Shown here: one piece after another, positions 1 through 17,103 of the stretch | How the letters are laid out: every line of letters begins with the position of its first letter | How positions within the stretch are numbered: position 1 is the first letter of the stretch | DNA from: Polyangiaceae bacterium | GTDB taxonomy: Bacteria; Myxococcota_A; Polyangia; Polyangiales; Polyangiaceae | Assembly: GCA_044224495.1 (NCBI GenBank) | Contig: JBGAKG010000005.1 | Span: forward strand, 44,711-108,710 | Direction of reading: 5' to 3' | Length of the DNA stretch: 64,000 nucleotides | Notes under the pieces: model-generated | Seen by the model: the letters and a program-made list of their open reading frames with translations, nothing else | What the model was told of the DNA's origin: nothing | Databases searched by the model: none | Made by a program: the position numbers and the translations under genes

Positions 1-647
1 TCGTCGTGATCGAGGTTGTTGACGAGGATCTGGAGCGGCGCGGTCGGGTCACCCGGCGCCGGCGGCACGGTCTTGAGGATCAGATCGAAGAGCGGCTCGA
101 GGTTGACCGAGGCGTCCTCGAGCTTGTTCTTCGCGATGCCTTGCTTGCCGATCGCGTAGATGACGGGGAAGTCGACCTGGTCGTCGGTCGCACCGAGATC
201 GCAGAAGAGGTCGAAGACCTCGTTCAGGACGTCGGTCGGGCGAGCGTCGGCGCGGTCGATTTTGTTGATGACTACGATGACGGGGAACCCGAGCTCCAAG
301 CACTTGCGGAGCACGAAGCGGGTCTGGGGGAGCGGCCCCTCGGCGGCGTCGACGAGAAGGAGCGCGCCGTCCGCCATGAGCAGCGTGCGCTCGACCTCAC
401 CACCGAAGTCGGCGTGGCCGGGGGTGTCGACGATGTTGATCTTGGTGCCCTTCCACCGGACGCTCGTGTTCTTCGCGAGGATGGTGATTCCGCGCTCGCG
501 CTCGAGGTCGTTGGAGTCCATGACGCGGTCGGCGACGACCTCGTTCTCGCGGAAGGTCCCCGCTTGGCGGAGCATGTGGTCGACGAGCGTCGTCTTCCCG
601 TGGTCGACGTGAGCGACGATCGCGACGTTGCGGAGAGCCTGGGCCAT
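1..647 (-). CDS. typA: Translational GTPase TypA/BipA, N-terminal part; gene continues past window start
   Basis: Minus-strand translation from ATG (comp 645-647) reads [23 protein letters not shown]...[14 protein letters not shown]...NKIDR, i.e. G1/G3/G4 motifs of the EF-G/BipA family. C-terminus lies beyond coordinate 1. Confidence 0.85.
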
Positions 648-722
648 GATGTTCGGGCGCTCTATTAGCCGCCAGGGGCCCGCCGCGCAAGCAGTCGCGA
701 CTGCGACGCGCGAACCCGCCCG

Positions 723-3700
723 TCAGCGCACGCCGAGTCGGCCGCGCGCATCCATGTACGCATCGGCCAGGGTGAAGGCGAACACGTCCTTCACTTCGGC
801 GTTGCGGCTGAGGAAGGAAACGCGCTCCTGCTCGGTCGCGGGAGCGCCGGAGACCTTCGGCCCGCTCGCCCAGGCGAGCGCATCCAAGGCTGCGCTGGGC
901 TCGCCGACGGCGAGCAGCGCCGTGCGGTTCGCGATCGAGAGCACGGCCGCGCCGAGGGCGGCAATCTGGGGCCCGACGCCGCCGATGACCTCGAGCGCCA
1001 TGGCGCCGAGATCGGGATCGAGCTGGCGCGGCATGCCGGCCGCGAGGCGCCGGCCCGCCTCGGCCAGGGGGCCTGGCGCGATGCCTTGGGGGGACCAGTT
1101 CGGGACGAACGCCTTGAGCCAGGCGCCGACGAGCACGGGGAGGTCGCCCGGCGGGAGCCGCGCGAACGCCGAACCGTGGAGCTGGAGCAGCTTCACGCCG
1201 CGCGTGATGAGGAACGCGCGGGCGACCTCGCGGGGCTCGTTCACGAGCTCCTCGCCGAGGACGAGGATGGGGCTGGGCGAGGCACCCGGCACGCACGCTC
1301 GACCGAGCTGGGGGCTCACGAAGAGCTGGAGGTTCGGCACGCCGGCGGCCTGCGCCAGCCCGATCGCGAGGCGCGCGGCGGGCTCCGTGGGCGGGTAGGG
1401 GTTCGCCCGGAGCGTGCGCGGATCGAGCGGGACGGCGGCGTCGAGGGCGCTTCCGGTTCGCGTGAGGAGGGCTCGTGCCGCGGCGGTGAGCAGCTCCGGG
1501 GCGAGCAAGTCGTCGAGCCGTGGGTCGAGCGCTCGCGCTTCGCCCCCGCGCATGAGCTGGTCGCGCGACGGGGTCTCGTTCTTGAGCGCGGCGAGGGAGG
1601 CGCGGACCACCTTGCCCGCGTCCTCCTTGTTCCGGAGCTCGTAGACGGTCTGCATCGTCTCGAAGAGCGCCGCGTTGATGCGGCCCGCCGCGAGCGCACG
1701 GCGAGCGTCGCCGGCCGCGCGATCGAGGAGGATGTTGACCGCCGGCGCCTGCTTCTGGCGGACGTAGTACTCCGCCAGCGCGCGGAGCGCGGCGACGTCG
1801 CTCGGGAACTCGCGCCGAGCAGCCTCGAGCGTCTGCTCGGCCTTGCGGAGATCGTGCGAGACGTACTCGTAGATCGCCGCGAGCTCGACGAGCCGCTTCT
1901 GCTTGGTCTTCGAGTCCGGAGCCCGCTTGATGAGGTCCTGCTGGGCCTCGAGCGCGCGCGCGGGATCGTTCTGGCGCTTGTAGACGTCGACGAGCTGCTC
2001 GCGGACCTGAATCTCGTCCGGGGCGCGCTTCAGCACCTCCTGGAACGCGACCTCGGCGCGGGAGTAGTTCGCGAGCTGCTCCGCGTACAGCGCCCCGAGG
2101 CGCCGGTAGATCGCGAGCTGCTCCTCGGGCTGCGGCAGGAGGCGGACGAGCCGCACCCACGCCTGCTCCGCGCCTTCCCAGTCCTTCTCTTGGAACGCGA
2201 GGTCCGCGGCAGCGCCGAGCGCGCCGACGTGGTCGGGCTTGATCGCGAGGGCGGCCTCGTAGGCCTCCTTCGCCGCGCCCGGATCGCCGATCTCGGCGAG
2301 CACGCGGCCGCGGTCGACCTCGAGATCGACGCGCTCCTCCGGATCGAGGACGGTGCCGATGCGACGCTCGAGGAGCGACGCGAGCTCGGTCCGTGCGCCG
2401 CGCTTCGCGTAGAGGCGCGAGAGGCGCGGGAAGACGTCCTTGTAGGTCACGTTCGCCGACGCGACCTGCTCGAGCGCCGCGACGGCGCGCTCTTCGTCGC
2501 CGGCCTCGGTCCACGCGATCGCAGCACCGTAGTACGCGTCGACGCGGTGCTCCTCGACGGTGGCCGTGCGCGCGACGGACTCGAGCGCTTCGGCGGCGGG
2601 ACCGTGCTCGCCCGCGGCGAGGTGGACCTCCGAGAGGAGGCGCCACGCGCGCGTGTCGGCGGCGTCCTCGGTGGTCGCGCGAAGGATGTACGCCTTCGCT
2701 TCGTCGGGCCGGCCGAGCCGAGTGGCGGCTTCGGTGGCGCGGAGGAGCAGGGTCGCGAGCTCGCCCGGACGCGTGCAGCGCTCGATGAGGCTCTTCGTCG
2801 TCGCGAGCAGCGCTTCGTCGTCGTCCTTGGCGCGCGCGTGCGCGTTGCGGAGGCGGAGCGCCCAGAGCGACGGCACCTTCTCCGCGACCGCGAGCTCCGC
2901 GAGCGGCAGCGTGGCGTCCCACTGGTTGCCGTTCATGCGGAAGCGCGCGGCGATCTCGGCGTGGCTCAGCGCCTCGCCGCCGGTCCCCTTCAGGTACGTC
3001 GCGATCGCGGCGAGGATCGGCTCGAGCTCGTCGTCGCGCCGGCCGTCCATCAGGGCGTGCTCGACGTGGCGCAGGCTCGCGGCGTGGTCGGGCGTCTCCT
3101 CCAGGATCGTGCGGCGCCAGAGGAGCGCGCTCGCGGGATCGTTGCGCGCGTGGCGGTCGAGCTCGGCGAGGCGCTCGTAGGCTTCGCTCCGGGCGCGGAC
3201 GGAGCCGGCGCTGCGCGCCTCGGTCAAGAGCTCGTCCGCGAGGCGTGCGGCGTCGCCGGCGGCGACCTCGACGCGCTCGAGAGCGACGCGGGCGAGGGGA
3301 GCCATCGTGGTGGGCTCGCCGATCTGGCGGATGGCGGCGAGCGCCGCTTCGGGCTGCTCCTGGCGCTCGTAGTCCCAGGCGGCTTCCAGCAGGAGCAGGC
3401 TCTTGGCGCTGCCGGTCGCGGCGGCGGCGCGGCTGGCGCGCCACTCGGCGCGATCGGTCGGCGGCGTGGGCGAGATGCGCTCGAGCAGCTCGCGGACGGC
3501 GACGTCGTCCGGACGCGCGCGCAGGGCCTCCTCGAGGAGCCCGGCGGCGAGGGTGGTGTCGGTGTCGGCGACGAGGAACGCCTCGCGGACTTGGTCGACG
3601 GCCTTCTCGATCGGATCGCTCGCGAGCGCGCTGCGCTCGCGCACGAGCTCGACGACGGCGTCGACGTCGGCCGCGCGGCGCGCCTCGCGCTCGGCGAGGA

Positions 3701-6248
3701 AGTTCGCGATCGGGAGCTGGGGCGCGGCCTTGGCGAGCGCGACGAGATCCTCTCGCCGCGCGGCGAGATCGCCGCTGCGGAGGATGATCTCGAGCCGCAG
3801 CACGGCGGCGCGGAGCGGATCGCCGCAGGCCTCGGCCACGCGCTCGAGCGCCACCGCGAGGGGGAGCTCGGGATCGGTCGCAGCCGCGGCGCGAGCAGCC
3901 GCTTCGTTCGTGGGATCGGCGGCGAGCGCCGAACCGTAAGCTGCCGCGGCGCGAGGAGCGAGCCCTGCACGCTCGGCGACGATGCCGGCGGCCAGGCTCG
4001 CTTGCGAGGTGTCGGACCAGCTCGCGAGGGCGGCGGAGACCTCTTCGATCCGACCGGCGGCGGCGGCTTCCTCGATCCGAGCCGCGCGGGCGAAGGACGG
4101 ATCGTGAGCGTCGAGCGCGTCGAGGCGGGTGGGGTCGAGCTTGCCGGCGGCCATGCCGCGCCCGACGCGGAGCGCGGCCTTCGTCGCGTCGTCGCCTTGG
4201 ATGGCGTCGAGGCGGACGTCGAGCGCGGCGGACGGATCCACGAGCGCGGCGCGGAGCGCGGGCGCGACGTCGTCGCCGAGCGCGGGCTTCACACCCGCGA
4301 GCGCGGAGAGGACGGCGCGCTCCTCTTCGTCGAAGCCTTCGCCGCCCGCGGCGGCGCGAAGCGAGTCGACGTCGCCCAGCTCCAGCGCGCGCGCGGCCAG
4401 CGCTCGTTGTGCGCGCGGATCGGTGGCGGCCAGACCCTGGAGCAGCGTGACGGCCTGCGCGCGAGTCGAGCTCTTGGTCGCGGCGAGCGCGGCGGCGAGC
4501 CAGTGCGCTCCCGGTTGGAGCGCGGGCGTTGCGCCGAGCTCTTGGAGCTGCGCGCACGCAGCGGTCGTGTCGTTGCGCTCCAACGCGACGCGGGCGCGGC
4601 GGAGCGCGCCCTCCGGCGAGGAGCCCCCCTCCTTGCGGTCGACCCCACGCAGCCCGAGAAGCGTCGACACGGCGTGGGCGACCTCGGTCAGGTGCGGTGC
4701 ATCGGGCACGCGGAGCGTCGCGGACGGAGGACCGTCCTGCGCGAGGCCCCGCGCCGCGCGCTGGACCACGACGCGCGCGTCGTTCGGCGCGAACCGCGCC
4801 GCTTGCTCGAGGCGCTTCGACGTGGCCTCGTCGTCCCCCGTCCGCGCGATGAGGTCGGCGGCCAGGAGGGCGTCGTGGAGCTTCGCCAGCGGCGGCAGCG
4901 CGAGCTTCGCCTCGGCGTCGAGGCGTGGAACGAGCGTGTCGGCCTCGAAGGGAACGAACGCGCGCGCTTGGCGGTGCGCGAACGCGAGCGACGGGTTCGC
5001 CTCCAGCGCTTCGCCGGCGAGGCGCTCGGCCTCGTCGCGCTGTCCGAGGATGGCGCGGAGCTCGCTCGCGGCGAGCAGGCAGCGCGCGCGCCCGGACTTG
5101 TCGAGCATGTTCTGGGCTTCTTCCTCGAACATCGTCGCGCGCGCTTCGAACGAGGGGCGCGCTTCGTCGGGGAGCCAATCGTTCGCGGGCTTCTCGTCCT
5201 CGAAGACGACGGCGCCGCGGAGCTCGCTCGGACCGGGCGCCGGCGCGGGGGCGACGACTTCGGGCTCGCGCACGGACTCGTGGGCGATGTCGGCGGCGGC
5301 TTCGATCGGTGCATCGAGCAGGGCCGCGAGCTCGGCGTCCTCGTCGGCGAGCGCCGGCGCGGAGAGCAGCTCGTCGGAGCGGACGAGCTCGGCTTCCTCG
5401 GACGCGATGCGCTCGCGCGCGGGCGGGAGCTCCTCGATCGCGGGCGCGGACGGTGCGGGCGGCGGCGGGGCGGCCGGGCGCGGCGGCATGGCCGGGCGAC
5501 CGGCGGCGGGCGGCGGCGGGGGCGGCGGTGCCGCCTGCTCGCGAGCGGCCTCGATCTTCGCGCGGAGGGACGAGAGATCGGCCACGCTCGTCGCGGCGTC
5601 GCTGTCGTCGTCGGGAGGTGGGGGCGGCGGGAAGCGCGTGGGCTGGTCGTTCTTCACCGGCTCCGGCGCCGGGTCCTGGAACGGATCGAAGAGCGCGCCA
5701 TCGGGCACGTGCGGTTCGACGTCGAGCGTGGCGAGCTGCGGGCGCACGCTCTGGCGAGGCGCCCCTTCGGCGCCGACGTCGATCGCGCTCGTCACCACCG
5801 CTTCGTCGTCTTCGTCGCTCCCGCTCGTGCGGCGCGGTCCGGGCTCGTCGAAGAGCACGTCCAGCGCTTCGTCGTCGCTCGAGGGTGCGGGGCGCGCGGG
5901 GGCGGACGACTCGCCGCGGCCGAAGAGCTGCCCGAGCCCACCGCGCTTGCGCGGGATGGCGGGCGGCTTCGCGATCGGCTTCGGCGGCGAGACGCGCGCC
6001 TGCTCGAGCAGGTGCGAGGCCGTCGGATCGAGCGTCTCCTGCGGAGGACGATAGAGGGCGGGCTGCTTGGCGCCGGGCGGGACGGGCGGAGGGGGCTTCG
6101 CCGCCGCGGGCTTCGGGCTCTTGCCCTCTTCCTCTTTCTCTTTCTTCTCCTTCGCGAGATCGGGCTCGAACGGCTTCTTGTCCCACTCGGAGAGAGCCGC
6201 ATCCCAGTCGAAATCGTCGAGCGGAGACTTGGTGCCGTCGTCGGTCAT
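723..6248 (-). CDS. Giant TPR-repeat protein (1841 aa) with Pro-rich acidic N-terminal region
   Basis: Single ORF with protein-like composition and GC3 bias. N-terminal about 350 aa low-complexity (PPPPPP runs, DE clusters), then several hundred aa of TPR-like helical repeats, then a non-TPR C-terminal domain. Start ATG overlaps stop of upstream gene (ATGA at 6245-6248). Confidence 0.75.
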   Translation of the reverse strand: MTDDGTKSPLDDFDWDAALSEWDKKPFEPDLAKEKKEKEEEGKSPKPAAAKPPPPVPPGAKQPALYRPPQETLDPTASHLLEQARVSPPKPIAKPPAIPRKRGGLGQLFGRGESSAPARPAPSSDDEALDVLFDEPGPRRTSGSDEDDEAVVTSAIDVGAEGAPRQSVRPQLATLDVEPHVPDGALFDPFQDPAPEPVKNDQPTRFPPPPPPDDDSDAATSVADLSSLRAKIEAAREQAAPPPPPPPAAGRPAMPPRPAAPPPPAPSAPAIEELPPARERIASEEAELVRSDELLSAPALADEDAELAALLDAPIEAAADIAHESVREPEVVAPAPAPGPSELRGAVVFEDEKPANDWLPDEARPSFEARATMFEEEAQNMLDKSGRARCLLAASELRAILGQRDEAERLAGEALEANPSLAFAHRQARAFVPFEADTLVPRLDAEAKLALPPLAKLHDALLAADLIARTGDDEATSKRLEQAARFAPNDARVVVQRAARGLAQDGPPSATLRVPDAPHLTEVAHAVSTLLGLRGVDRKEGGSSPEGALRRARVALERNDTTAACAQLQELGATPALQPGAHWLAAALAATKSSTRAQAVTLLQGLAATDPRAQRALAARALELGDVDSLRAAAGGEGFDEEERAVLSALAGVKPALGDDVAPALRAALVDPSAALDVRLDAIQGDDATKAALRVGRGMAAGKLDPTRLDALDAHDPSFARAARIEEAAAAGRIEEVSAALASWSDTSQASLAAGIVAERAGLAPRAAAAYGSALAADPTNEAAARAAAATDPELPLAVALERVAEACGDPLRAAVLRLEIILRSGDLAARREDLVALAKAAPQLPIANFLAEREARRAADVDAVVELVRERSALASDPIEKAVDQVREAFLVADTDTTLAAGLLEEALRARPDDVAVRELLERISPTPPTDRAEWRASRAAAATGSAKSLLLLEAAWDYERQEQPEAALAAIRQIGEPTTMAPLARVALERVEVAAGDAARLADELLTEARSAGSVRARSEAYERLAELDRHARNDPASALLWRRTILEETPDHAASLRHVEHALMDGRRDDELEPILAAIATYLKGTGGEALSHAEIAARFRMNGNQWDATLPLAELAVAEKVPSLWALRLRNAHARAKDDDEALLATTKSLIERCTRPGELATLLLRATEAATRLGRPDEAKAYILRATTEDAADTRAWRLLSEVHLAAGEHGPAAEALESVARTATVEEHRVDAYYGAAIAWTEAGDEERAVAALEQVASANVTYKDVFPRLSRLYAKRGARTELASLLERRIGTVLDPEERVDLEVDRGRVLAEIGDPGAAKEAYEAALAIKPDHVGALGAAADLAFQEKDWEGAEQAWVRLVRLLPQPEEQLAIYRRLGALYAEQLANYSRAEVAFQEVLKRAPDEIQVREQLVDVYKRQNDPARALEAQQDLIKRAPDSKTKQKRLVELAAIYEYVSHDLRKAEQTLEAARREFPSDVAALRALAEYYVRQKQAPAVNILLDRAAGDARRALAAGRINAALFETMQTVYELRNKEDAGKVVRASLAALKNETPSRDQLMRGGEARALDPRLDDLLAPELLTAAARALLTRTGSALDAAVPLDPRTLRANPYPPTEPAARLAIGLAQAAGVPNLQLFVSPQLGRACVPGASPSPILVLGEELVNEPREVARAFLITRGVKLLQLHGSAFARLPPGDLPVLVGAWLKAFVPNWSPQGIAPGPLAEAGRRLAAGMPRQLDPDLGAMALEVIGGVGPQIAALGAAVLSIANRTALLAVGEPSAALDALAWASGPKVSGAPATEQERVSFLSRNAEVKDVFAFTLADAYMDARGRLGVR

Positions 6249-9200
6249 GGCGCCTCCAAGCCGAGGGCGCGGCGCGCGTCGGAGAACGCACCGGAGAGGT
6301 TGAACTTGGCGAGCGCGGCGATCCTCGGATCACCGGGCCCGGCGGGCGGAACGAGCTCGCTCGCGACGACGGGGAGCTCCCCGGCGGCGACGAGCGCGAC
6401 GCGTGCGTGCGACATCAGTGCTGCCCGCGCGAACATCTTCGCGTCGGGGTTCTGCTGGGCGACCACCGCGCACGTCTCGCGGATGGCGTTCTTGGTCTTG
6501 CGCGAGATCGCCTTGTTGACCAGCTTCTCGACCTCGGCCAGCACCGCGTAGGGCGGAGCTTGGATGGGGACGTCGACGATGCGACACGCGGCGACGACGA
6601 TCGCGGCGACCGTCGTCTCGTCGCGCGAGCGGAGCACCGTCGTGCCGCGCGCGAGCGCGAAGAGCTCGCGCGCGAACTTCCCGCGCGTGGCCGGATCGAA
6701 CGGAGCGCGGATGCCGGGACCCACGACGATCGCGGGCTCTTCACCGGCGATGCCCTGGACGCCGAGCGGGTCCTTCCCGCCGACGTAGAGCTGGACCTCC
6801 GCGTGGCCGAGCGCTCCCGCCCACGCTGCGTGCTCGTTGTAGAGCGGCAGGCCCGAGCGCGGGTCGACGCGATCGCGGCGGCCGACGCCGAGCGCGTCGC
6901 GCGACGGACCGATGGCCTCGCCGAGCGTGGGACCGAGGAGCTGGAAGAGCGCCGCGAGCGGGCCGTCGTCGCCGGGAGCGAGGAGGAGCTTCAGCGTGAG
7001 CGGCGTGACCGCGGTCTGCGGCACGAGCCGCCCGCGCTGCGAGCGAATGCGCGTCTGCGCGTCGTCGAGCGCCACCGTGCGGATGCCGAGCGTGGACGCG
7101 ACACCGAGCGCCGCCTCTTGGAGCGGAACGTTGCCGAGCGCTTGGGCGATCCACGAGAGGCGCGCGGCGCTCTCGCCGTCCATCGGGTTCTGCCCGAGCG
7201 TGGCGAGGATGGCCGTCTGCGCGGCGGCGAGCAGGCGCTTTCGCTCGGGCGACTGGATCCCGAGGAGCACGTCGACGGCTTCTCCGTCGCCGGGGGCCTC
7301 TTCGAGCAGCTTGACGACGGCCTTCTCCGCGCGCTGCGGCGCGGCGAGCTTGTCGCGGTAGATCGTGATCGCGAGGCGCGCCGCATCGACGCGCCCGTCG
7401 CGCTCGGGCCGCTCGACCATGAGCTCCTCGAGGATCGAGACTGCTTCCTCCCACGACTTCGTGCGCGCGGCGGACTTCGCGAGGCGCTCGCGGACGGGGA
7501 GGGTGGTGAGCTTCGCCTTGTGGAGGAGCAAGAGGACCTCGAGCGCGCGCTTCGGCTGCTCGAGCTTGTTCTCGAAGAGGTCGACCGCCGCGACGCCCGC
7601 GGTGATGCGGTTCTTCGGCGGCGCCGAGTCGAGCGACGCGAGCCGGGCGAGGCGCTCCGCAGCGTCGGCGAACTTGCCTTGGCGGATCGAGATCTCGCCG
7701 CTCAGCGCGAGCGCGCCGACGTGATCGGGCTCGATCATGACGACGTTCTCGAGCGCGTTGAGCGCGCCATCGGTGTCGCCCCGCTCGCGGAGCACGCGGG
7801 CTTGCTCCCAGTAGAGCTTGCCGACCTCGGGCGGGTCGTCGGTGTTCTCGAGGCGGCGCGCGATGAGCTGGAGCAGCTTCTCGCCGTCCTTGCGCTCGCG
7901 GACGCGACGGAAGAGGCGATCGAACGCGGTCGTCCGCTTCGGGTCGCGCTCGAACGCGGCCTCGAAGGCGGTGTCGGCGGCGTCGTCCTGGCCGATGCCG
8001 AGGTAGACGAGCGCGGCTTCCTCGAGGAACGCGGCGCCGCGGTGCGAGTCGCCGGCCATCTCGCCGAGGTGGGCGGCGGCGGCCGCGTGGAGCTCCGGTT
8101 GGCTGCCGAGCTCGGCCGCCGCACGGAGGCCTTCCCAGGCGGCGAAGTCGTCCGGCCGCGCTTGGGCGACCGCTTGGAACACCTCGATCGCGCCCTCGAG
8201 ATCGCCGGCGACGAGGAGTGACCAACCGCCGAGCCCCAGTGCGTCCGCTTGGGCGGCCTCGCCCAACGCGTCACCGAGGTTGCAGAGCGCCGTCGCGCGG
8301 CGGCGCGGATCGGACCCGGGCGGCGCGACCTCGAGGTTGGCGAGGCGCACGGCGGCGCCGTCCCCGTCGAGGAGCGGCGTGGTGATCGGTCCGCCTTCCT
8401 CGCGGATGCGGTCCAGCACGACGGCGCTCGCGGCGAGCTGCTCGCGCGCTTCGCCCGACACCTGCTCGGCGAGCGCGCGACGCGCGGCGACGTCGTCGCC
8501 GAGCTCGCGCGTCTCGGCTGCCGCGACGATCCACGCGAAGGCAGCGGGGGCGCCGCCACCGACGTCGACCCAAGCGCGCGCTGCTTGCGAGCGCGCCTCG
8601 GGATCGAGCGTCTGCGCGCGGCGGAGTCGCTCCGCGGCGGCGAGCTCGGGTGCGCCCTGCGACGCGATCACGTCGAGGGCGACCTCGACGGCCGCCGGGT
8701 CCGGGTTCGTCTCGGGGATGACGAGCCGCGCGAGCGCGGCCGACACGGCGAGCGCGCCGCCCTCGGGCTCGCGCTCGAGCGCACGGAGGACCTCTTCGGC
8801 GTCCCCACCTTGGCCGGCGGCGAGCTCGGTGGCGAGACGCTCGAGATCGAGGACGCGAGCATCTCCACCGCCGTCGCGCGCTCGCTCGATCGCGAGCCGG
8901 CGACCCTCGACGGCGTCCGCGTCGATCGCGCGTCCGGCCCAGCCGAGGACCATCTTGGCCGCGCGTCCGGACGGGCCTTCGCCGCGCTCGGCGGCGATCA
9001 GGAAGGCTTGGAGCGCTCCGGCCTTGTCGCCCGCGGCCCAACGCGCGAAGCCCGCTTCGAGCGCGAGCGCGCACGCGACGACCGCATCGCCGGTCGCCTG
9101 CGCGAACGACTCGAGGACGTTGGCGGCGGCCTGCGCGTCGCCCGAGGCGCGATCGAGATCGGCGAGGAACGCGGCGACGATCGCGTCGTCCTTTCGTTCG

Positions 9201-10972
9201 CCGAGCCGCTCCTTGAGGATCTCCTTCGCGCGCGCGGTCGAACCCGCGCCATGAGCGCGGAGCGCGGCGAGCAGCCGGAGCGCGCGCGCGTTGTCTTCGT
9301 TCGGCTCGTGGCCGGCGAGCGACAGGAGCCCATCGACGTCGGGCGCGCTCCGGGCCGACTCGCCCGCGGCTTCGCCTTCGGCAGGCTTCGCTTCGAGCGG
9401 GAGGTACGCCCCGAGGATGCGCCCGAGCCACGCGCTCTCGTTGTTCGCGGCGAGCTCGGCGATCGCCTTGCGCGCACCGTCGAGGTCGTTCCGCTCGAGG
9501 CGCGCGCGGAGGAGCTCGAACCAGAGGCCGGCGAGCTCGACGCCATCGACGCCGCTCGCGACGAGGCGCCGGGTGGCTTCGTCGAGCCACGCAGCGTCAC
9601 CTTTGACGACGGCGAACGCACGCGCGAGGCGCGCGACGGTCCCCGAGGGAACCTCCGAAGCCTGCGCTTGCGAGAGCGCGAGCTTCGCGGCGGCGACGTC
9701 GTCGGCCTCCATCGCCCACGCGTAGGCGCTGAGCAGGTAGGCGCGGCCGCGCGCGGCGTCGGTCCCGAAGCGCTCCGCGAACGACTCGAGCTGCTCGGCG
9801 AACGCCCCGCCGGGGCCGCCGCTCCCGAGGAGATCCAACTGGAGGGCGCGCGCCGGGAGCGACGCGGGATCCGCGGTCGTCGCCTTCGCCAGTGCTTCGA
9901 GCGCCTTGTCGCGATCGCCTTGCGTCGCTGCGAGCTCTGCGAGGCGGATCGCGAGCGCGCTCGTCGTCGCGCCGTCCGTCTCTCGCGCGAGTCGCTTCGA
10001 GGCGAGGTCGGCCGCGAGCGCGGTGTCACCGAGGACCTCGGCGACGCGCAAGCGGGCTCCGAGGAGAGCGCTGTACGCGAGCGTGTCGGAGTCGCCGTCG
10101 GCCCCGACGACCTCGAGCGCGCGATCGAGTGCGGTCGCGGCACCGGCGACGTCCCCGGTGAGCCGCTTCGCGTCGGCCGCGCGGAGGTAGGCGTCGGCGA
10201 GGTGAGCGGGCGTACGCATCCAGTGCGGGACGCCGAGCGCATCCGCGCGCTCGGGGGTCGCGAGGCCTTCGGCGACGAGCGCCCCGATCGATTCGAGCGA
10301 GGCGGCGTAGATCCGCTTCTGCTCGTCGTCGCCGGCGCCGCGCGCGACGCGCTCGGTGAGCATCGCGGCGAGGTACGTCGCCTTCGAACCGAGCTCGCGG
10401 GCGCGCGTGAGGAGCTCGAGCGCGCGCGGAGCCTGCCCTGCGGCATCGGCGATGCGCGCGAGATCGAGCAGGAGAAGCGCCTGCCACGTCGGATCGCCCG
10501 CGTGCTTCACACGGAGCTCGAGCGCGCGCTCGCGGAGCGCGACGTCGCCGTTGCGACACGCGAGCAGCTCGAGCGCGAGCGCAGCGGTCGCCTCTTCGGG
10601 GGCGGGAGGATCGGCGGAGGCGGCCTCGGTGAGGGCCTCTTCGATCGCCGCGCGCGCGCCTTCCACGTCGGCGCTGACGTCCTCGACGTAGGCCGCGCGC
10701 ATGAGGAGCGCGCGCGCCTTCTCCGCCGGCGTGACCGCCGCGCGGACGAGTGCGTCGATCACGCGTCCGAGGTTCTTGAGCGAGCGCCGGCGCTCGAGGA
10801 GCCGAACGAGGGCCTCGAGCGGCTCGCGGAAGGTCGGGTCGGCGTTGAACGCCGCCAGGTAGTCGCGCGCCGCGGTGGGCTCGTCGCCCGCACGCTCCGC
10901 GATCTCGCCCGCTTCCCCCAGGAGGCGGGCGAGTCGTTCTTTGTCCGTGGTCTTCGCGATCTCCGCGCGCAA
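6245..10972 (-). CDS. Giant TPR-repeat protein (1575 aa), paralogue of downstream neighbour
   Basis: Long ORF, all-alpha TPR-like composition (A/L/E/R rich, periodic W/Y/G). C-terminal approx 250 aa resembles C-terminus of the 723..6248 protein. Track start is a TTG; true start uncertain. Confidence 0.7.
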   Translation of the reverse strand: MRAEIAKTTDKERLARLLGEAGEIAERAGDEPTAARDYLAAFNADPTFREPLEALVRLLERRRSLKNLGRVIDALVRAAVTPAEKARALLMRAAYVEDVSADVEGARAAIEEALTEAASADPPAPEEATAALALELLACRNGDVALRERALELRVKHAGDPTWQALLLLDLARIADAAGQAPRALELLTRARELGSKATYLAAMLTERVARGAGDDEQKRIYAASLESIGALVAEGLATPERADALGVPHWMRTPAHLADAYLRAADAKRLTGDVAGAATALDRALEVVGADGDSDTLAYSALLGARLRVAEVLGDTALAADLASKRLARETDGATTSALAIRLAELAATQGDRDKALEALAKATTADPASLPARALQLDLLGSGGPGGAFAEQLESFAERFGTDAARGRAYLLSAYAWAMEADDVAAAKLALSQAQASEVPSGTVARLARAFAVVKGDAAWLDEATRRLVASGVDGVELAGLWFELLRARLERNDLDGARKAIAELAANNESAWLGRILGAYLPLEAKPAEGEAAGESARSAPDVDGLLSLAGHEPNEDNARALRLLAALRAHGAGSTARAKEILKERLGERKDDAIVAAFLADLDRASGDAQAAANVLESFAQATGDAVVACALALEAGFARWAAGDKAGALQAFLIAAERGEGPSGRAAKMVLGWAGRAIDADAVEGRRLAIERARDGGGDARVLDLERLATELAAGQGGDAEEVLRALEREPEGGALAVSAALARLVIPETNPDPAAVEVALDVIASQGAPELAAAERLRRAQTLDPEARSQAARAWVDVGGGAPAAFAWIVAAAETRELGDDVAARRALAEQVSGEAREQLAASAVVLDRIREEGGPITTPLLDGDGAAVRLANLEVAPPGSDPRRRATALCNLGDALGEAAQADALGLGGWSLLVAGDLEGAIEVFQAVAQARPDDFAAWEGLRAAAELGSQPELHAAAAAHLGEMAGDSHRGAAFLEEAALVYLGIGQDDAADTAFEAAFERDPKRTTAFDRLFRRVRERKDGEKLLQLIARRLENTDDPPEVGKLYWEQARVLRERGDTDGALNALENVVMIEPDHVGALALSGEISIRQGKFADAAERLARLASLDSAPPKNRITAGVAAVDLFENKLEQPKRALEVLLLLHKAKLTTLPVRERLAKSAARTKSWEEAVSILEELMVERPERDGRVDAARLAITIYRDKLAAPQRAEKAVVKLLEEAPGDGEAVDVLLGIQSPERKRLLAAAQTAILATLGQNPMDGESAARLSWIAQALGNVPLQEAALGVASTLGIRTVALDDAQTRIRSQRGRLVPQTAVTPLTLKLLLAPGDDGPLAALFQLLGPTLGEAIGPSRDALGVGRRDRVDPRSGLPLYNEHAAWAGALGHAEVQLYVGGKDPLGVQGIAGEEPAIVVGPGIRAPFDPATRGKFARELFALARGTTVLRSRDETTVAAIVVAACRIVDVPIQAPPYAVLAEVEKLVNKAISRKTKNAIRETCAVVAQQNPDAKMFARAALMSHARVALVAAGELPVVASELVPPAGPGDPRIAALAKFNLSGAFSDARRALGLEAP

Positions 10973-11060
10973 CCACGCCGCCGTCGCCGCCGAGGCATCG
11001 GCGGTCTCTGCGCCTCCCGTGGTCGAAGGCCCTTCGGCGTTGCTCAGGGGGTAGCTCCCT

Positions 11061-11348
11061 TCACAGAAGCTGGTTCAACTTCTCGTTGATCTTGTCCTCG
11101 ATCGTACCCTTCATCACGCGCAGCATGAAGGGGAGGTCGACTTCGACCCGAACGTTCTTGTCCGTGACCGAGACTGCGCCCTTCACGCCCTTGGCCGTGC
11201 CGCTCGTGGCCTCGAACTTGATGGCGTTGCCCGCCCAAGCCCAGGTCAGATTGAGGCGATCTTGCATGCTCTTGGCGAGCTCCTCGGCCTTCTTCTTTGC
11301 ATCGTCGAGGGGGAGCGAGTGGGTCTTGCTGATGTCGATCGTAGCCAT
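11061..11348 (-). CDS. Polyhydroxyalkanoic acid system family protein (PHA_gran_rgn-like), 95 aa
   Basis: 95 aa; N-terminal IDISKTHSL and C-terminal VRVEVDLPFMLRVMKGTIEDKINEKLNQ match the architecture of the small PHA-system proteins as I recall them. Confidence 0.55.
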   Translation of the reverse strand: MATIDISKTHSLPLDDAKKKAEELAKSMQDRLNLTWAWAGNAIKFEATSGTAKGVKGAVSVTDKNVRVEVDLPFMLRVMKGTIEDKINEKLNQLL

Positions 11349-11366
11349 GGTGCTCCTTCGAAAGTA

Positions 11367-11975
11367 TCACTCGATGCGCTTCACGATCCAGTACCCCCGC
11401 GGGGTATCCACTGGACCATCGGCCACTTTACCGACCCCCAGGCTGAACAGGACGTACTCGGGCGCCGGCTCCAGGGTCCCCCGGGGAACCCGGCCGACGT
11501 CGTCCGCCGACCCATCGTCCCCCTTGCGGACGGCCGCGTGGAAGTCGGTCTTGGCGAGCTCCGCCAGGCTGGCTGCGAGCTCCTGGGCGTCCCGCTTGTT
11601 CCGCGCCGTCGGGGAGGACATCTCGGCGCCCTGGTAGGTCACGAGGACGACCCCGAAACGCACCTTCATCGGGGCGTCTCCGGCGAGGGGGGGCACTTCG
11701 CTCCCGTCCGGCATCCGGAACCCGACGCCACCATCGCGGCGGGGCTCGTTGATCGGGAAAATGGGCATCGACGTGCCCAAGTCTGCGTCGTCCGGGAACA
11801 GGTCGGCGTCGCCGGCGCTCGCCAGCGAGGCGCCGCCGTCGCCGGTCCCGGTCTCGGCGTCACCCGCGTCGGACGGCGCCCGCCAGGGCCTCCAATTCGA
11901 GATGGTCTGTCCCGCGAGCAGCACCGCGATCGCCACGGCGGCGATCCCCAGCACGATCGAAGCGAGCCGTTGCAT
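11367..11975 (-). CDS. Membrane-anchored parvulin-type peptidyl-prolyl isomerase (PpiC domain)
   Basis: N-terminal TM helix (LGIAAVAIAVLLAG), C-terminal rotamase-like region ending PRGYWIVKRIE, typical of the PpiC/parvulin fold. Confidence 0.5.
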   Translation of the reverse strand: MQRLASIVLGIAAVAIAVLLAGQTISNWRPWRAPSDAGDAETGTGDGGASLASAGDADLFPDDADLGTSMPIFPINEPRRDGGVGFRMPDGSEVPPLAGDAPMKVRFGVVLVTYQGAEMSSPTARNKRDAQELAASLAELAKTDFHAAVRKGDDGSADDVGRVPRGTLEPAPEYVLFSLGVGKVADGPVDTPRGYWIVKRIE

Positions 11976-11981
11976 CGAGGG

Positions 11982-12521
11982 TCAGGCCGCTCCGGCCGCG
12001 CCCGGATCCGCCATCGACTCGTCGTCGGTCGGGGTCGCCGGCGGGCCGTACTCTTCGTAGGGGCGAAGGGTGGCCGGCGGCGGGTCGCCGAAGAGCTCGA
12101 GCTGTGCGGCGAGCCAGTTCTGGCGGGAGATGAGCGCGCTCGCGCGGGCCATCTCCTTCGCCTGCGTGCGGTCGAGCGAGTCCTGCAGGAGCTTGGAGAG
12201 CTCCGCGTCGACCTCGGCGAGCTCCTTGCGCACGAGCACCGGATCGATCGCCGACTTCTCGACGAACTCCTCGGTGAGGACGAGCACCTTGTCGGCGCTC
12301 ACCTCGACGAAGCCGCCGCCGATCGCGCAGCGCTTCGTGTCGTTACCGATCCGGTACGACACGATGCCGGTGCGCGCGGCGGCCAGCGCCGGGAGGTGGC
12401 CGGGGAGGACGCCGAACTCGCCGGCTTCGCCGGGGAGGGAGACCTCGTCGACCTTCTCGGAGAGCGCGCGCCCCTTCGGCGTCACGACCTCGAGTTGGAT
12501 TCGGTTGGCTTCGTCCGCCAT
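11982..12521 (-). CDS. atpC: F0F1 ATP synthase epsilon subunit with C-terminal extension
   Basis: LEVVTP...VSLPGEAGEFGVLPGHLP motif. Immediately downstream of atpD. Confidence 0.85.
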   Translation of the reverse strand: MADEANRIQLEVVTPKGRALSEKVDEVSLPGEAGEFGVLPGHLPALAAARTGIVSYRIGNDTKRCAIGGGFVEVSADKVLVLTEEFVEKSAIDPVLVRKELAEVDAELSKLLQDSLDRTQAKEMARASALISRQNWLAAQLELFGDPPPATLRPYEEYGPPATPTDDESMADPGAAGAA

Positions 12522-15166: not shown

Positions 15167-17047
15167 CTACTTCTCGATGTGGAACTCGACCCGCCGGTTC
15201 GCCTTGCGCCCCGCATCGCTGGTGTTCGGCTCCAGCGGCCGATCGGGTCCGAAGCCCGCGCTGGCGAGCCGTGCCCTGTCGATGCCGTGCGCCACGAGCC
15301 ACTTCACGACCGACGCGGCGCGGTCGCCCGACAGCTTCTTGTTGAACGCGGCCGGGCCCTGGTCGTCGGTGTGACCTTCGACGTTCAGCTTCGTGATCTC
15401 GGGGTGCGCCTTCAGCACGCCGAGCACGGCGGTGAGCACCTCTTCGCTGTCCTTGCCGGGGAGGATGTCCGCGCTCCCGGTCTTGAACTTCACCTGCTCG
15501 AGGATCGTGATGACCCCGCCGTTCACGAACGCCATCGGGCACCCGTTCTTCTTCGGGTCGGTGTTCGCTTTGCCGGGCTCCTTCGGGCACGCGTCGAGCT
15601 CGTTCTCGATCGCGTCGCCGTCGAGATCGGCAGGGCACCCGTTGAACTCGGGCTTCGTCGACGCCTTGCCGGGTTGGTCGACGCACGCGTCGTCCTTGTC
15701 GTAGATGCCGTCGCCGTCCTTGTCGGGTGGGCAGCCGTTCTTCTTGGGGTCGTCGCTCGGGACGCCCGCGACGTCGACGCACGCGTCCTTCGCATCGGGT
15801 ACGCCGTCACCGTCCTTGTCCGGCGGCGGCGGCGGGGGCAGGGCCACCGGCGGCTCGGCGGGGCAGCCGTTCGTCGCGCGATCGAGCGAGCGCGGACCGG
15901 GGACACGCGGGCACGCATCTTCCCCATCGGGGACACCGTCGCCGTCGCCGTCGGCCGGGCACCCGTTCTTGTGCGGGTCGTCGCTCGCGACGCCGGCGGT
16001 CGTGGGGCACGCGTCCTTGCCGTCGCGGATGCCGTCGCCGTCCGTGTCGTCGCGGTAGGGCGGCGCGAGCTCGAGCGACGCCATCCACCGCCGCTCCGGC
16101 GCGCCGAAGCCGCGCGTGAGCCCGAAGCCACCGCCGACGCCGAACCGCACGGGGCCGGCCGTGTAGTGCGCGCCGAGCAGCACCTCGACCGGGACCTCCG
16201 GCCCGGTGTCCTCGGGCGCGCCCGAGAGCGACGCCTGCGACGGGTTGCTCGTGAAGACGGCGCTCCCGAAGAGCTCCGGCCCGATCACGAGGTGCCGGTC
16301 GAGCACGCGCACGCCCGCCGCCGCGGCCCAGGTGAGCTCCTGTCCGATCCGCGTCGCGCCGAAGAACCGCTCCGGTCGCCCGAGGTTCGCGCCAATGCGT
16401 GCAGAATACACGAAGGGCCCGATGTCGCCCGCGACGAGCAGCCGCGGCGCGATCCGGAGGTTGCCGTCGCTCGTGTAGTCGCTCGGGTTCCCGCTCGGGA
16501 AGTAGATGCCGAGCCCCGCGGCGAGGGTGAACGGGTCGCCGTACTCGCCGAACACGCGCAGGTCGGCCGTGAAGCGGAAGTCGCCGAACGACTGATCGTT
16601 CTCGGGCCCGGCGATGATGCTCTTCCCGAACGTCGCCTGATGGCCGTCTTGGAAGACCACGACCGGCACGTCGAGCGCGACGCGGAGGCGCTCGAAGAAC
16701 ACCATCGCGGCGCCGATGTGGAGCGTCCCCACGTTGCGGAGCGGGCTCAGCCGGATGTCGCCGTTGGGCGCGTTCACGACGAGCGGGCGGTATTGCCCTT
16801 CCATCACGACGCCCACCGTCGGGCGCAGGTGCCCGCGCACGTCGAGCGAGTCGTTCGCGAACCACTCGCTCCCACGGACCGCGGGATCGAAGCGGTTCAT
16901 CGAGATGCCCGGCTCGACCGCCTGCGCGGAGGCTGCTTCTTCGCGGGCGGCGAGCGCGCCGAGCGCGACGAAGGCGCCGAGCGCAAAGCGAGAAAGGCGA
17001 GCGGAACGAACGGACCGACGCGACCGAGGCGTACGCCGAGGAGTCAT
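15167..17047 (-). CDS. OmpA-family outer membrane protein with thrombospondin type-3 (Ca-binding DxDxDG) repeats
   Basis: Signal peptide, N-terminal beta-barrel-like region, multiple DTDGDGIRDGKDACP / DKDGDGVPDAKDAC TSP3 repeats, C-terminal OmpA/MotB peptidoglycan-binding domain (NRRVEF). Confidence 0.85.
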   Translation of the reverse strand: MTPRRTPRSRRSVRSARLSRFALGAFVALGALAAREEAASAQAVEPGISMNRFDPAVRGSEWFANDSLDVRGHLRPTVGVVMEGQYRPLVVNAPNGDIRLSPLRNVGTLHIGAAMVFFERLRVALDVPVVVFQDGHQATFGKSIIAGPENDQSFGDFRFTADLRVFGEYGDPFTLAAGLGIYFPSGNPSDYTSDGNLRIAPRLLVAGDIGPFVYSARIGANLGRPERFFGATRIGQELTWAAAAGVRVLDRHLVIGPELFGSAVFTSNPSQASLSGAPEDTGPEVPVEVLLGAHYTAGPVRFGVGGGFGLTRGFGAPERRWMASLELAPPYRDDTDGDGIRDGKDACPTTAGVASDDPHKNGCPADGDGDGVPDGEDACPRVPGPRSLDRATNGCPAEPPVALPPPPPPDKDGDGVPDAKDACVDVAGVPSDDPKKNGCPPDKDGDGIYDKDDACVDQPGKASTKPEFNGCPADLDGDAIENELDACPKEPGKANTDPKKNGCPMAFVNGGVITILEQVKFKTGSADILPGKDSEEVLTAVLGVLKAHPEITKLNVEGHTDDQGPAAFNKKLSGDRAASVVKWLVAHGIDRARLASAGFGPDRPLEPNTSDAGRKANRRVEFHIEK

Positions 17048-17080
17048 GGCAGGTACGACGTTTCGCCTGCCGCCACGCGC

Positions 17081-17103
17081 GGGTCAAGGTCCGTCCTTGA
17101 CCC
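17081..17103. promoter_or_regulatory. 9-bp-arm inverted repeat gggtcaagg-N5-ccttgaccc in divergent ompA-like / dnaG-rpoD promoter region
   Basis: Perfect inverted repeat in the 92-bp intergenic region between divergent starts (17047 minus, 17140 plus). Candidate operator. Confidence 0.3.

Follow-up and report, generated by a model that had tools for sequence, protein, structure and literature searches.

The window analyzed here, a 64-kb stretch of a Polyangiaceae contig, carries on its minus strand two consecutive, very large genes, which we denote P1 and P2. Their products combine long arrays of tetratricopeptide repeat (TPR)-like helices with a C-terminal domain that, judged from structural models and profile comparison, has the fold of zincin metalloproteases and appears to have lost the protease active site. 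In the reading that we favor, the two proteins would be partners in one cytoplasmic scaffold.

P1 and P2 are overlapping genes

A preliminary description of this DNA reported two consecutive open reading frames (ORFs) of 1575 and 1841 amino acids (aa) with an ATGA stop/start overlap, and the ORF list and the junction letters agree with it exactly (Table 1). The junction of the P1 stop with the P2 start reads GCGCCATGACC, or ...GAGGCGCCATGACC.... The G+C content of the region is about 74%, long frames stay open by chance on every strand, and in other frames several ORFs exceeding 1000 aa run across it. That P1 and P2 are themselves such chance frames is nevertheless practically negligible as an explanation. 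The G+C fractions at the three codon positions were 0.80/0.52/0.90 in P1 and 0.80/0.53/0.91 in P2, steady across every 600-nt block, whereas the third-position value (GC3) of the long overlapping ORFs in other frames was 0.52-0.81, and these shadow ORFs were ruled out on that ground. The P1 product is 100% identical to a recorded protein (P0001) and has 567 homologues at E ≤ 0.001; among the homologues listed, the best share about 50% identity over their full length of about 1600 aa, a level that points to strong purifying selection. The P2 product is likewise 100% identical to a recorded protein (P0121) and has 134 homologues at the same threshold, about 50 of them full-length. Considering GC3, the hundreds of full-length homologues and the high-confidence predicted folds described below, P1 and P2 are real genes, read in the frames that had been assigned to them.

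The start of P1 is uncertain because its homologues carry longer N-termini and because a CTG codon at 11047 has a Shine-Dalgarno sequence. The homologues extend about 25-50 residues beyond the listed P1; for example, a 79%-identical homologue (P0003) opens with MSERLSNPEGS..., while P1 reads LSNAEGPS.... The CTG lies 7 nt after GGGAG and just past the stop of the upstream PHA_gran_rgn gene. The true start may be this rare CTG, in which case P1 would have 1600 aa and begin about 11 nt after the upstream gene. The P1 frame upstream of the listed TTG (10972-11064, minus strand) is open and contains no ATG, GTG or TTG.

P1 and P2 are paralogues along their whole bodies

When P1 and P2 were compared by BLASTP, only the TPR block was aligned (27% identity over 258 residues, E = 3e-8), and the C-terminal domain gave nothing but fragments at E values of 1.8 and 29. 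Because BLASTP shows nothing significant at the C-terminus, profiles were needed to reveal the paralogy, and we compared family alignments of 41 P1-type and 51 P2-type sequences using hhalign. P1 1-1573 was colinear with P2 374-1841 over 1372 columns (probability 99.9%, E = 1.3e-34). The C-terminal part alone, P1 1376-1573 against P2 1623-1841, still gave a probability of 96.3% (E = 1.7e-9), in a stretch free of repeats that could inflate it. The alignment also brings together the two C-terminal motifs that the preliminary description had quoted side by side. The related non-TPR C-terminal domain proposed there therefore stands at the level of profiles, though not in pairwise BLASTP, and the likeness between the two proteins is not confined to this domain. 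Based on the profile comparison, P1 and P2 are paralogues along their whole bodies, with P2 corresponding to a P1-like protein that carries an additional 370-residue head. Only about 23% identity is left between the two types, yet each of them stays conserved. No further paralogue was found in the 64-kb window.

The C-terminal domains have a zincin fold without its active-site motif

AlphaFold2 models built with family alignments had predicted local distance difference test (pLDDT) scores of 93.6 for P1 1240-1575 and 95.8 for P2 1565-1841. In both models a first helix is followed by three short strands, then by a 16-residue helix and a helical bundle. In P1 the strands are VQLY, VQGI and AIVV, which make up the LQLYVGG...VQGI...AIVV motif noticed previously, and they are followed by the 'active-site' helix PATRGKFARELFALAR. 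A helix, a mixed β-sheet with an edge strand before a long 'active-site' helix, and a helical lower subdomain are the features of a zincin-like fold, and all were present. As modeled, the P2 domain is a zincin metalloprotease fold that is closest to the M48 peptidases HtpX and BepA. Homology and the topology in common with P2 indicate that the P1 domain is the same fold. Anthrax lethal factor matched the domain structure weakly, while M48-like proteins scored far higher.

Three features define the M48 peptidases: HEXXH within the active-site helix, a Glu ligand farther downstream, and the HPX4R plug (PMC7950410). A regular-expression search of both proteins found neither HExxH nor HPxxxxR, and only three and one His residues occur in the last 260 residues of P1 and P2, respectively. 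To place the missing motif, we used the E. coli HtpX segment ..VAVSTGLL..AEAVIAHEISH.. as the reference for register; a gap-free comparison from the third strand to the helix sets RELFA of P1 and TRGVK of P2 opposite HEISH of HtpX. This register derives from secondary structure and the gap-free comparison, not from structural superposition. At the equivalent columns, 254 P1-type domains have R (215), E (204), L (192), a variable residue, and A (187) or G (51), and 85 P2-type domains read x-R-A-L-K. His is outside the six commonest residues at all five positions in the P1-type domains and is not common in the P2-type domains either, and the P1-type alignment is without any invariant His. Two HE..H strings occurred among 360 domains, both off the equivalent position. 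The P1-type domains show conserved Arg, Asp and Glu residues around the retained Glu, and an invariant Glu 46 residues past it (E168 of alignment A3, in PPYAxLAEVE), which is placed by sequence position and not by superposition on M48.

At the level of sequence, our searches found no link between the domain and M48. Pfam gave no match at E ≤ 10, peptidase models including PF01435 among them, and a search of PDB sequences with the domain profile gave none. Alignment by hhalign to the aligned E. coli HtpX, BepA, LoiP and YcaL had a probability below 0.1%. A search with the P2-domain profile returned nothing but short-contig fragments, and a distant relative that still has its protease motif was not among them. 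Because His is not common at the proposed HExxH columns in either family, both domains look like pseudo-proteases, P1 keeping only the Glu and P2 nothing of the motif, and we infer that both are incapable of zinc-dependent proteolysis.

The bodies of P1 and P2 are TPR-like repeat arrays

The preliminary description regarded both proteins as almost entirely TPR-like. In Pfam, NCBIfam and PDB sequence searches, canonical TPRs covered about 250-375 aa of each protein, plus isolated repeats; TPR proteins of the PDB matched P2 1177-1449, and the predicted model of P1 shows TPR pairs at residues 1240-1315. Profiles above curated cut-offs together with helix-pair repeats identify P1 and P2 as TPR repeat proteins. 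For the N-terminal segment of about 900 residues in P1, alignment to the canonical P2 TPR block was obtained in multiple registers, with probabilities up to 97.5% (P1 348-718, E = 5e-12), and the array composition is rich in Ala, Leu, Arg and Glu. Because of these multi-register alignments and this composition, the remainder of the arrays appears to be a long, divergent TPR-like solenoid that is visible by profile comparison only. In this divergent sense the claim stands for the arrays. An almost invariant motif, GDEPxAARDYLAAFNADPTFREPLE.LVRLLERRRSLKNLG, lies at the N-terminus of P1.

Named TPR families scored far below their cut-offs (LapB, 43 against 363 bits; PrsT, 77 against 312 bits; MamA likewise). 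The best match to a gliding-motility protein was GltE, at 22 bits against a cut-off of 225, inside the generic TPR block. The family members that carry names have only 'hypothetical', 'uncharacterized' or generic TPR labels, and our literature searches found no paper on the P1/P2 family, returning BepA and M48 work only. While the proteins were rightly called uncharacterized, their size is less unusual than had been suggested: in one related locus, L077, the genes for a peptidyl-prolyl isomerase (PPIase), P1 and P2 adjoin a gene (422-4690, minus strand) for another TPR protein, which has 1422 aa, a zinc ribbon at its N-terminus and a long array of canonical TPRs. TPR proteins of very large size are therefore nothing unusual in these genomes.

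P2 carries a Pro-rich, acidic head

The P2 head contains 18.9% Pro, 16% Ala and 19.5% Asp plus Glu, with a net charge of -33. This composition, together with low conservation, is consistent with a disordered head, as had been proposed. Short conserved motifs stand out within it. The N-terminal consensus, acidic and aromatic, is M-T-D-x-K-K ... D-W-D-x-A-L-x-E-W-(D/E) ... F-x-P-E-V-A-K, and it is followed by LYRPP and then GGLxQLF (GGLGQLF in P2). In nearly all related loci, P2 shows this motif or its variant LDFEPDALLDSL at the N-terminus, the variant of the most divergent loci being L-D-F-E-P-D-A-L-L-D-S-L. Such a pattern appears to be the signature of a flexible arm that bears short linear motifs. 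The head matched no family in Pfam, NCBIfam or PADLOC, and the PADLOC defense models gave no match. Neither P1 nor P2 has a signal peptide or membrane helix, the highest 19-residue Kyte-Doolittle mean being 1.7, and both proteins are probably cytoplasmic.

The gene pair is conserved across Polyangia

We scanned one genome per species with two patterns; 81 genomes matched and 80 loci were kept. With Pendulispora and Sandaracinus, which were added by protein searches, and a duplicated headless pair, 83 related loci were compared. The matching genomes are labeled Polyangiaceae, Polyangiales, Polyangia, Labilithrix, Myxococcales, or unclassified delta/proteobacterial metagenome-assembled genomes (MAGs). 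All named hosts are Polyangia, and the family is confined to this class as far as sampled. An ORF with a P1-type domain is immediately followed by one with a P2-type domain in 65 of the 83 loci (62 scan loci, Pendulispora, Sandaracinus and the duplicated pair). The remaining loci are mostly truncated contigs, and wherever the sequence is long enough to judge, both genes are present. The spacing from the first gene to the second is -4 nt in 58 loci (ATGA, GTGA or TTGA), -1 nt in one, and +1 to +3 nt in 11, mainly of the Labilithrix group; Pendulispora, Sandaracinus and the second paralogous pair also have the 4-nt overlap.

This second pair lies on a 15-kb metagenome contig (L002, 890-10227) and consists of a 1575-aa P1-type protein and a 1537-aa headless P2-type protein, which shows that the pair duplicates as a unit. 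About ten headless P2-like proteins were collected (P0173-P0186), and in L002 a Ser/Thr protein kinase gene comes after the second pair. In a profile search of 1.84 billion representatives, 991 clusters carried the P1-type domain. In the best 150 of these 991, proteins of about 1500-1800 aa have the domain at the very C-terminus, shorter entries resemble fragments, and in a few long or truncated entries the domain is internal. An apparent 3399-aa P1-P2 'fusion' in L043, a long-read MAG, was rejected: a frameshift lies inside the P1 domain (about 10001-10800), and its likeliest cause is an indel in the assembly. The junction in L024 is a normal ATGA and is counted among the 58.

P1 and P2 as a proposed paired scaffold, and the alternatives

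We consider it probable that P1 and P2 are colinear cytoplasmic paralogues that form a 1:1 heteromeric TPR scaffold in which dead protease clefts serve as peptide-binding sites. The conserved ATGA overlap is a candidate for translational coupling, in which P2 translation would depend on P1. In the proposal, the cell would produce the two proteins jointly and at matching levels, and they would combine as a 1:1 hetero-complex. This complex would act as a large protein-protein interaction scaffold whose TPR arrays provide docking surfaces. By analogy with other dead zincin folds, the former protease clefts, in which Arg, Asp and Glu residues are conserved, may have become peptide-binding sites, and the P2 head could be a flexible arm that recruits partners or folds back onto the complex. 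Because of the strict pairing, the survival of the pair through duplication and the divergence of both types, the roles of P1 and P2 appear to be complementary rather than redundant.

Several points weigh against this proposal. The binding of P1 to P2 is something we infer, and adjacency with a 4-nt overlap is also common among unrelated neighbors in compact operons; the L043 fusion, which might have supported an interaction, is a frameshift artefact. Peptide binding in the dead clefts is argued by analogy only. Pfam, PDB and hhalign provide no sequence-level link to M48, the HExxH register lacks a superposition as described above, and the motif Glu kept by P1 leaves room for non-canonical chemistry. 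The last point is the starting point of a different reading, in which the C-terminal domains would be hydrolases that are active through a non-canonical site, for example one made of the Glu kept by P1 and other ligands, and the pair would be a giant TPR-guided protease resembling a cytoplasmic BepA. The zincin/M48 fold would suit such an enzyme, as would the motif Glu present in 204 of the 254 P1-type domains and ringed by conserved Arg, Asp and Glu, and the TPR and M48 combination of BepA works as both protease and chaperone. We nevertheless judge an active enzyme very improbable: in both families other residues stand at the two zinc-binding His positions, the P1 domain has no invariant His at all, the plug motif of M48, HPxxxxR, is missing, the Glu is lost in P2 too, and no Pfam peptidase model matches even at the permissive threshold.

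The pairing itself could also be explained more simply, if P1 and P2 were tandem duplicates that act independently and their overlap reflected a mere compact operon. Overlaps of 4 nt are common in high-GC bacteria, and the 11 loci with a gap of 1-3 nt in place of the overlap fit this explanation; yet 65 of the 83 loci, distant lineages included, preserve the order of a P1-type gene before a P2-type gene, the duplicated pair (1575 and 1537 aa) preserves it too, no sufficiently long locus has a single gene, and each type is conserved despite the divergence between them. Independent action is therefore unlikely in our judgment. The preliminary description had offered yet another role, seeing in the Pro-rich acidic head of P2 a likeness to the polar-targeting regions of myxobacterial motility scaffolds, so that the proteins would be polar or motility scaffolds. 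A general scaffold role fits the TPR arrays, and the composition of the head, with its Pro content, its negative charge and its apparent disorder, is all that speaks for pole targeting in particular. Pfam, NCBIfam and PADLOC give generic TPR similarity only, GltE remains far below its cut-off, and neither Pfam nor NCBIfam yields motility or polarity homology or domains, the head matching nothing; these were library searches and not a direct comparison with RomR, SgmX or AglZ. No motility genes lie nearby, the conserved neighbors being atpDC, PPIase, PHA_gran_rgn, typA, dnaG and rpoD, and the family was found only in Polyangia, while the well-studied motility scaffolds come from Myxococcus. The suggested resemblance thus goes no further than composition, and a polar or motility role is improbable.

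Returning to the paired scaffold, a bolder version, which we hold to be doubtful, would make it a cytoplasmic machine that is specific to Polyangia and nearly universal there. A P1:P2 heterodimer of 370 kDa, or a higher assembly, would use its ex-protease clefts as receptors for extended peptides, and the conserved position of the genes next to atpDC, a membrane parvulin and typA would link it to core physiology. Candidate ligands of the clefts would be the DWDxALxEW motif of P2's own head, acting in auto-regulation, or the tails of client proteins. If so, an entire protease active site would have become a module for recognition, carried by a giant TPR platform.

Comparison with known systems

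The nearest described system is BepA (YfgC), an M48 protease fused to a TPR domain. Compared with BepA and other M48 proteins (HtpX, LoiP, YcaL, ZMPSTE24), P1 and P2 lack HExxH, the HPxxxxR plug, and any PF01435 match or profile similarity. They also form an ordered paralogous pair, and they are probably cytoplasmic, without a signal peptide, whereas BepA and its M48 relatives are periplasmic or membrane-bound. In P1 and P2 the zincin domain comes after the TPRs, the reverse of BepA, where an N-terminal M48 domain is cupped by the C-terminal TPR domain; the array of about 1300 aa is about ten times longer than that of BepA, which has four TPR motifs. P1 and P2 are thus neither M48 members, as defined by HExxH, the HPX4R plug and the family profile, nor proteins of BepA-type architecture.

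Dead zincin folds are used for binding elsewhere, for example in the N-terminal domain of anthrax lethal factor. That catalytically dead domain, however, belongs to a different zincin branch without sequence relationship to P1 and P2, and to a secreted toxin rather than a bacterial cytoplasmic repeat protein. The minigluzincins (projannalysin, proabylysin, selecase) are small, stand-alone, zinc-binding and HExxH-bearing, whereas the core in P1 and P2 lies inside a domain of about 260 residues with a helical bundle and without HExxH. LapB/YciM, PrsT, MamA and PilW/PilF share generic TPR similarity with P1 at about 975-1240 and P2 at about 1177-1550, but they have no C-terminal zincin-fold domain and no paired genes.

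The family is large, with its 991 representative clusters, and strongly conserved, the pair being present in every related locus with enough sequence, and it belongs to a class rich in natural products. Its C-terminal domain has no Pfam model, so that the reading as a dead M48-like zincin would be the first structural handle on P1 and P2 and a clean bacterial example of a pseudo-protease joined to a repeat scaffold. Cultivable hosts include Labilithrix luteola, Sandaracinus amylolyticus and Pendulispora. The surprise is moderate rather than high, because the building blocks (TPR, zincin fold and disordered arm) are already familiar; what the family adds is a TPR scaffold with a zincin-fold module in an uncharacterized group of proteins.

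Neighboring genes

Table 1. Features of the P1/P2 locus, with positions in the window
Feature	Position	Strand	Residues	Remarks
P1 gene	6245-10972	-	1575 aa	From listed TTG start; ORF list
P2 gene	723-6248	-	1841 aa	ATG start; ORF list
ATGA overlap	6245-6248	-		P1 stop TGA and P2 start ATG; 4 nt common to both; from the sequence
P1 helical repeat array	7028-10972	-	1 to ~1315	
P1 canonical TPR block	7253-8050	-	~975-1240	Pfam TPR_8, ANAPC3, TPR_19 and TPR_2 above cut-offs
P1 C-terminal putative pseudo-zincin domain	6248-7027	-	~1316-1575	
P1 RELFA	6656-6670	-	1435-1439	Inferred HExxH position
P2 head	5139-6248	-	1-370	Pro-rich, acidic, poorly conserved
P2 conserved head motif	6150-6218	-	11-33	DDFDWDAALSEWDKKPFEPDLAK
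P2 helical repeat array	1539-5138	-	~371-1570	Colinear with P1 array; internal repeat alignments
P2 canonical TPR block	1599-2720	-	~1177-1550	Pfam and NCBIfam TPR matches
P2 C-terminal putative pseudo-zincin domain	726-1538	-	~1571-1841	
P2 TRGVK	1191-1205	-	1682-1686	Inferred HExxH position
PHA_gran_rgn protein	11061-11366	-		Conserved upstream neighbor; Pfam
Parvulin-type PPIase	11367-11981	-		Conserved upstream neighbor; Pfam
typA/bipA-like translational GTPase	3-647	-		Pfam GTP_EFTU, E = 4e-56; gene cut by window edge

Pfam confirmed the neighbors that had been named for the pair, the same-strand run being atpD, atpC, the parvulin-type PPIase, PHA_gran_rgn, P1, P2 and the TypA-like GTPase. 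The ATG of the typA-like gene lies 75 nt past the P2 stop, and no terminator-like site was found on the minus strand between atpD and typA, nor was a sigma-70-like promoter found. By tblastn in the 83 related loci, PPIase was found in 64, PHA_gran_rgn in 57, atpDC in 54 and typA in 34, so the PPIase is the most widely kept neighbor of the pair. In the divergent group L071-L080, a PPIase match lies upstream of P1 and tblastn gave no match to atpDC or PHA_gran_rgn; the adjacency of PPIase, P1 and P2 was directly seen in L077 (PPIase at 4898-5617), and in the other nine loci it rests on the match. This housekeeping neighborhood hints at a core rather than an accessory function, and it may also be plain synteny. 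At its N-terminus, the PPIase upstream of P1 bears a hydrophobic anchor, MQRLASIVLGIAAVAIAVLLAG; it also contains an acidic linker of low complexity. Given the membrane anchor, it probably acts outside the cytoplasm, and a direct functional tie to the pair is uncertain for this reason.

No tRNA or Rfam match was found in the window, and the tandem repeats within 1-12000 are solely GC-rich, Pro/Ala-coding tracts. Farther upstream, a gene for a 638-aa protein with thrombospondin type-3 repeats and a C-terminal OmpA domain (15167-17083, minus strand) has the atp genes on one side and dnaG-rpoD, in divergent orientation, on the other. In Pendulispora, dnaG likewise adjoins atpD.

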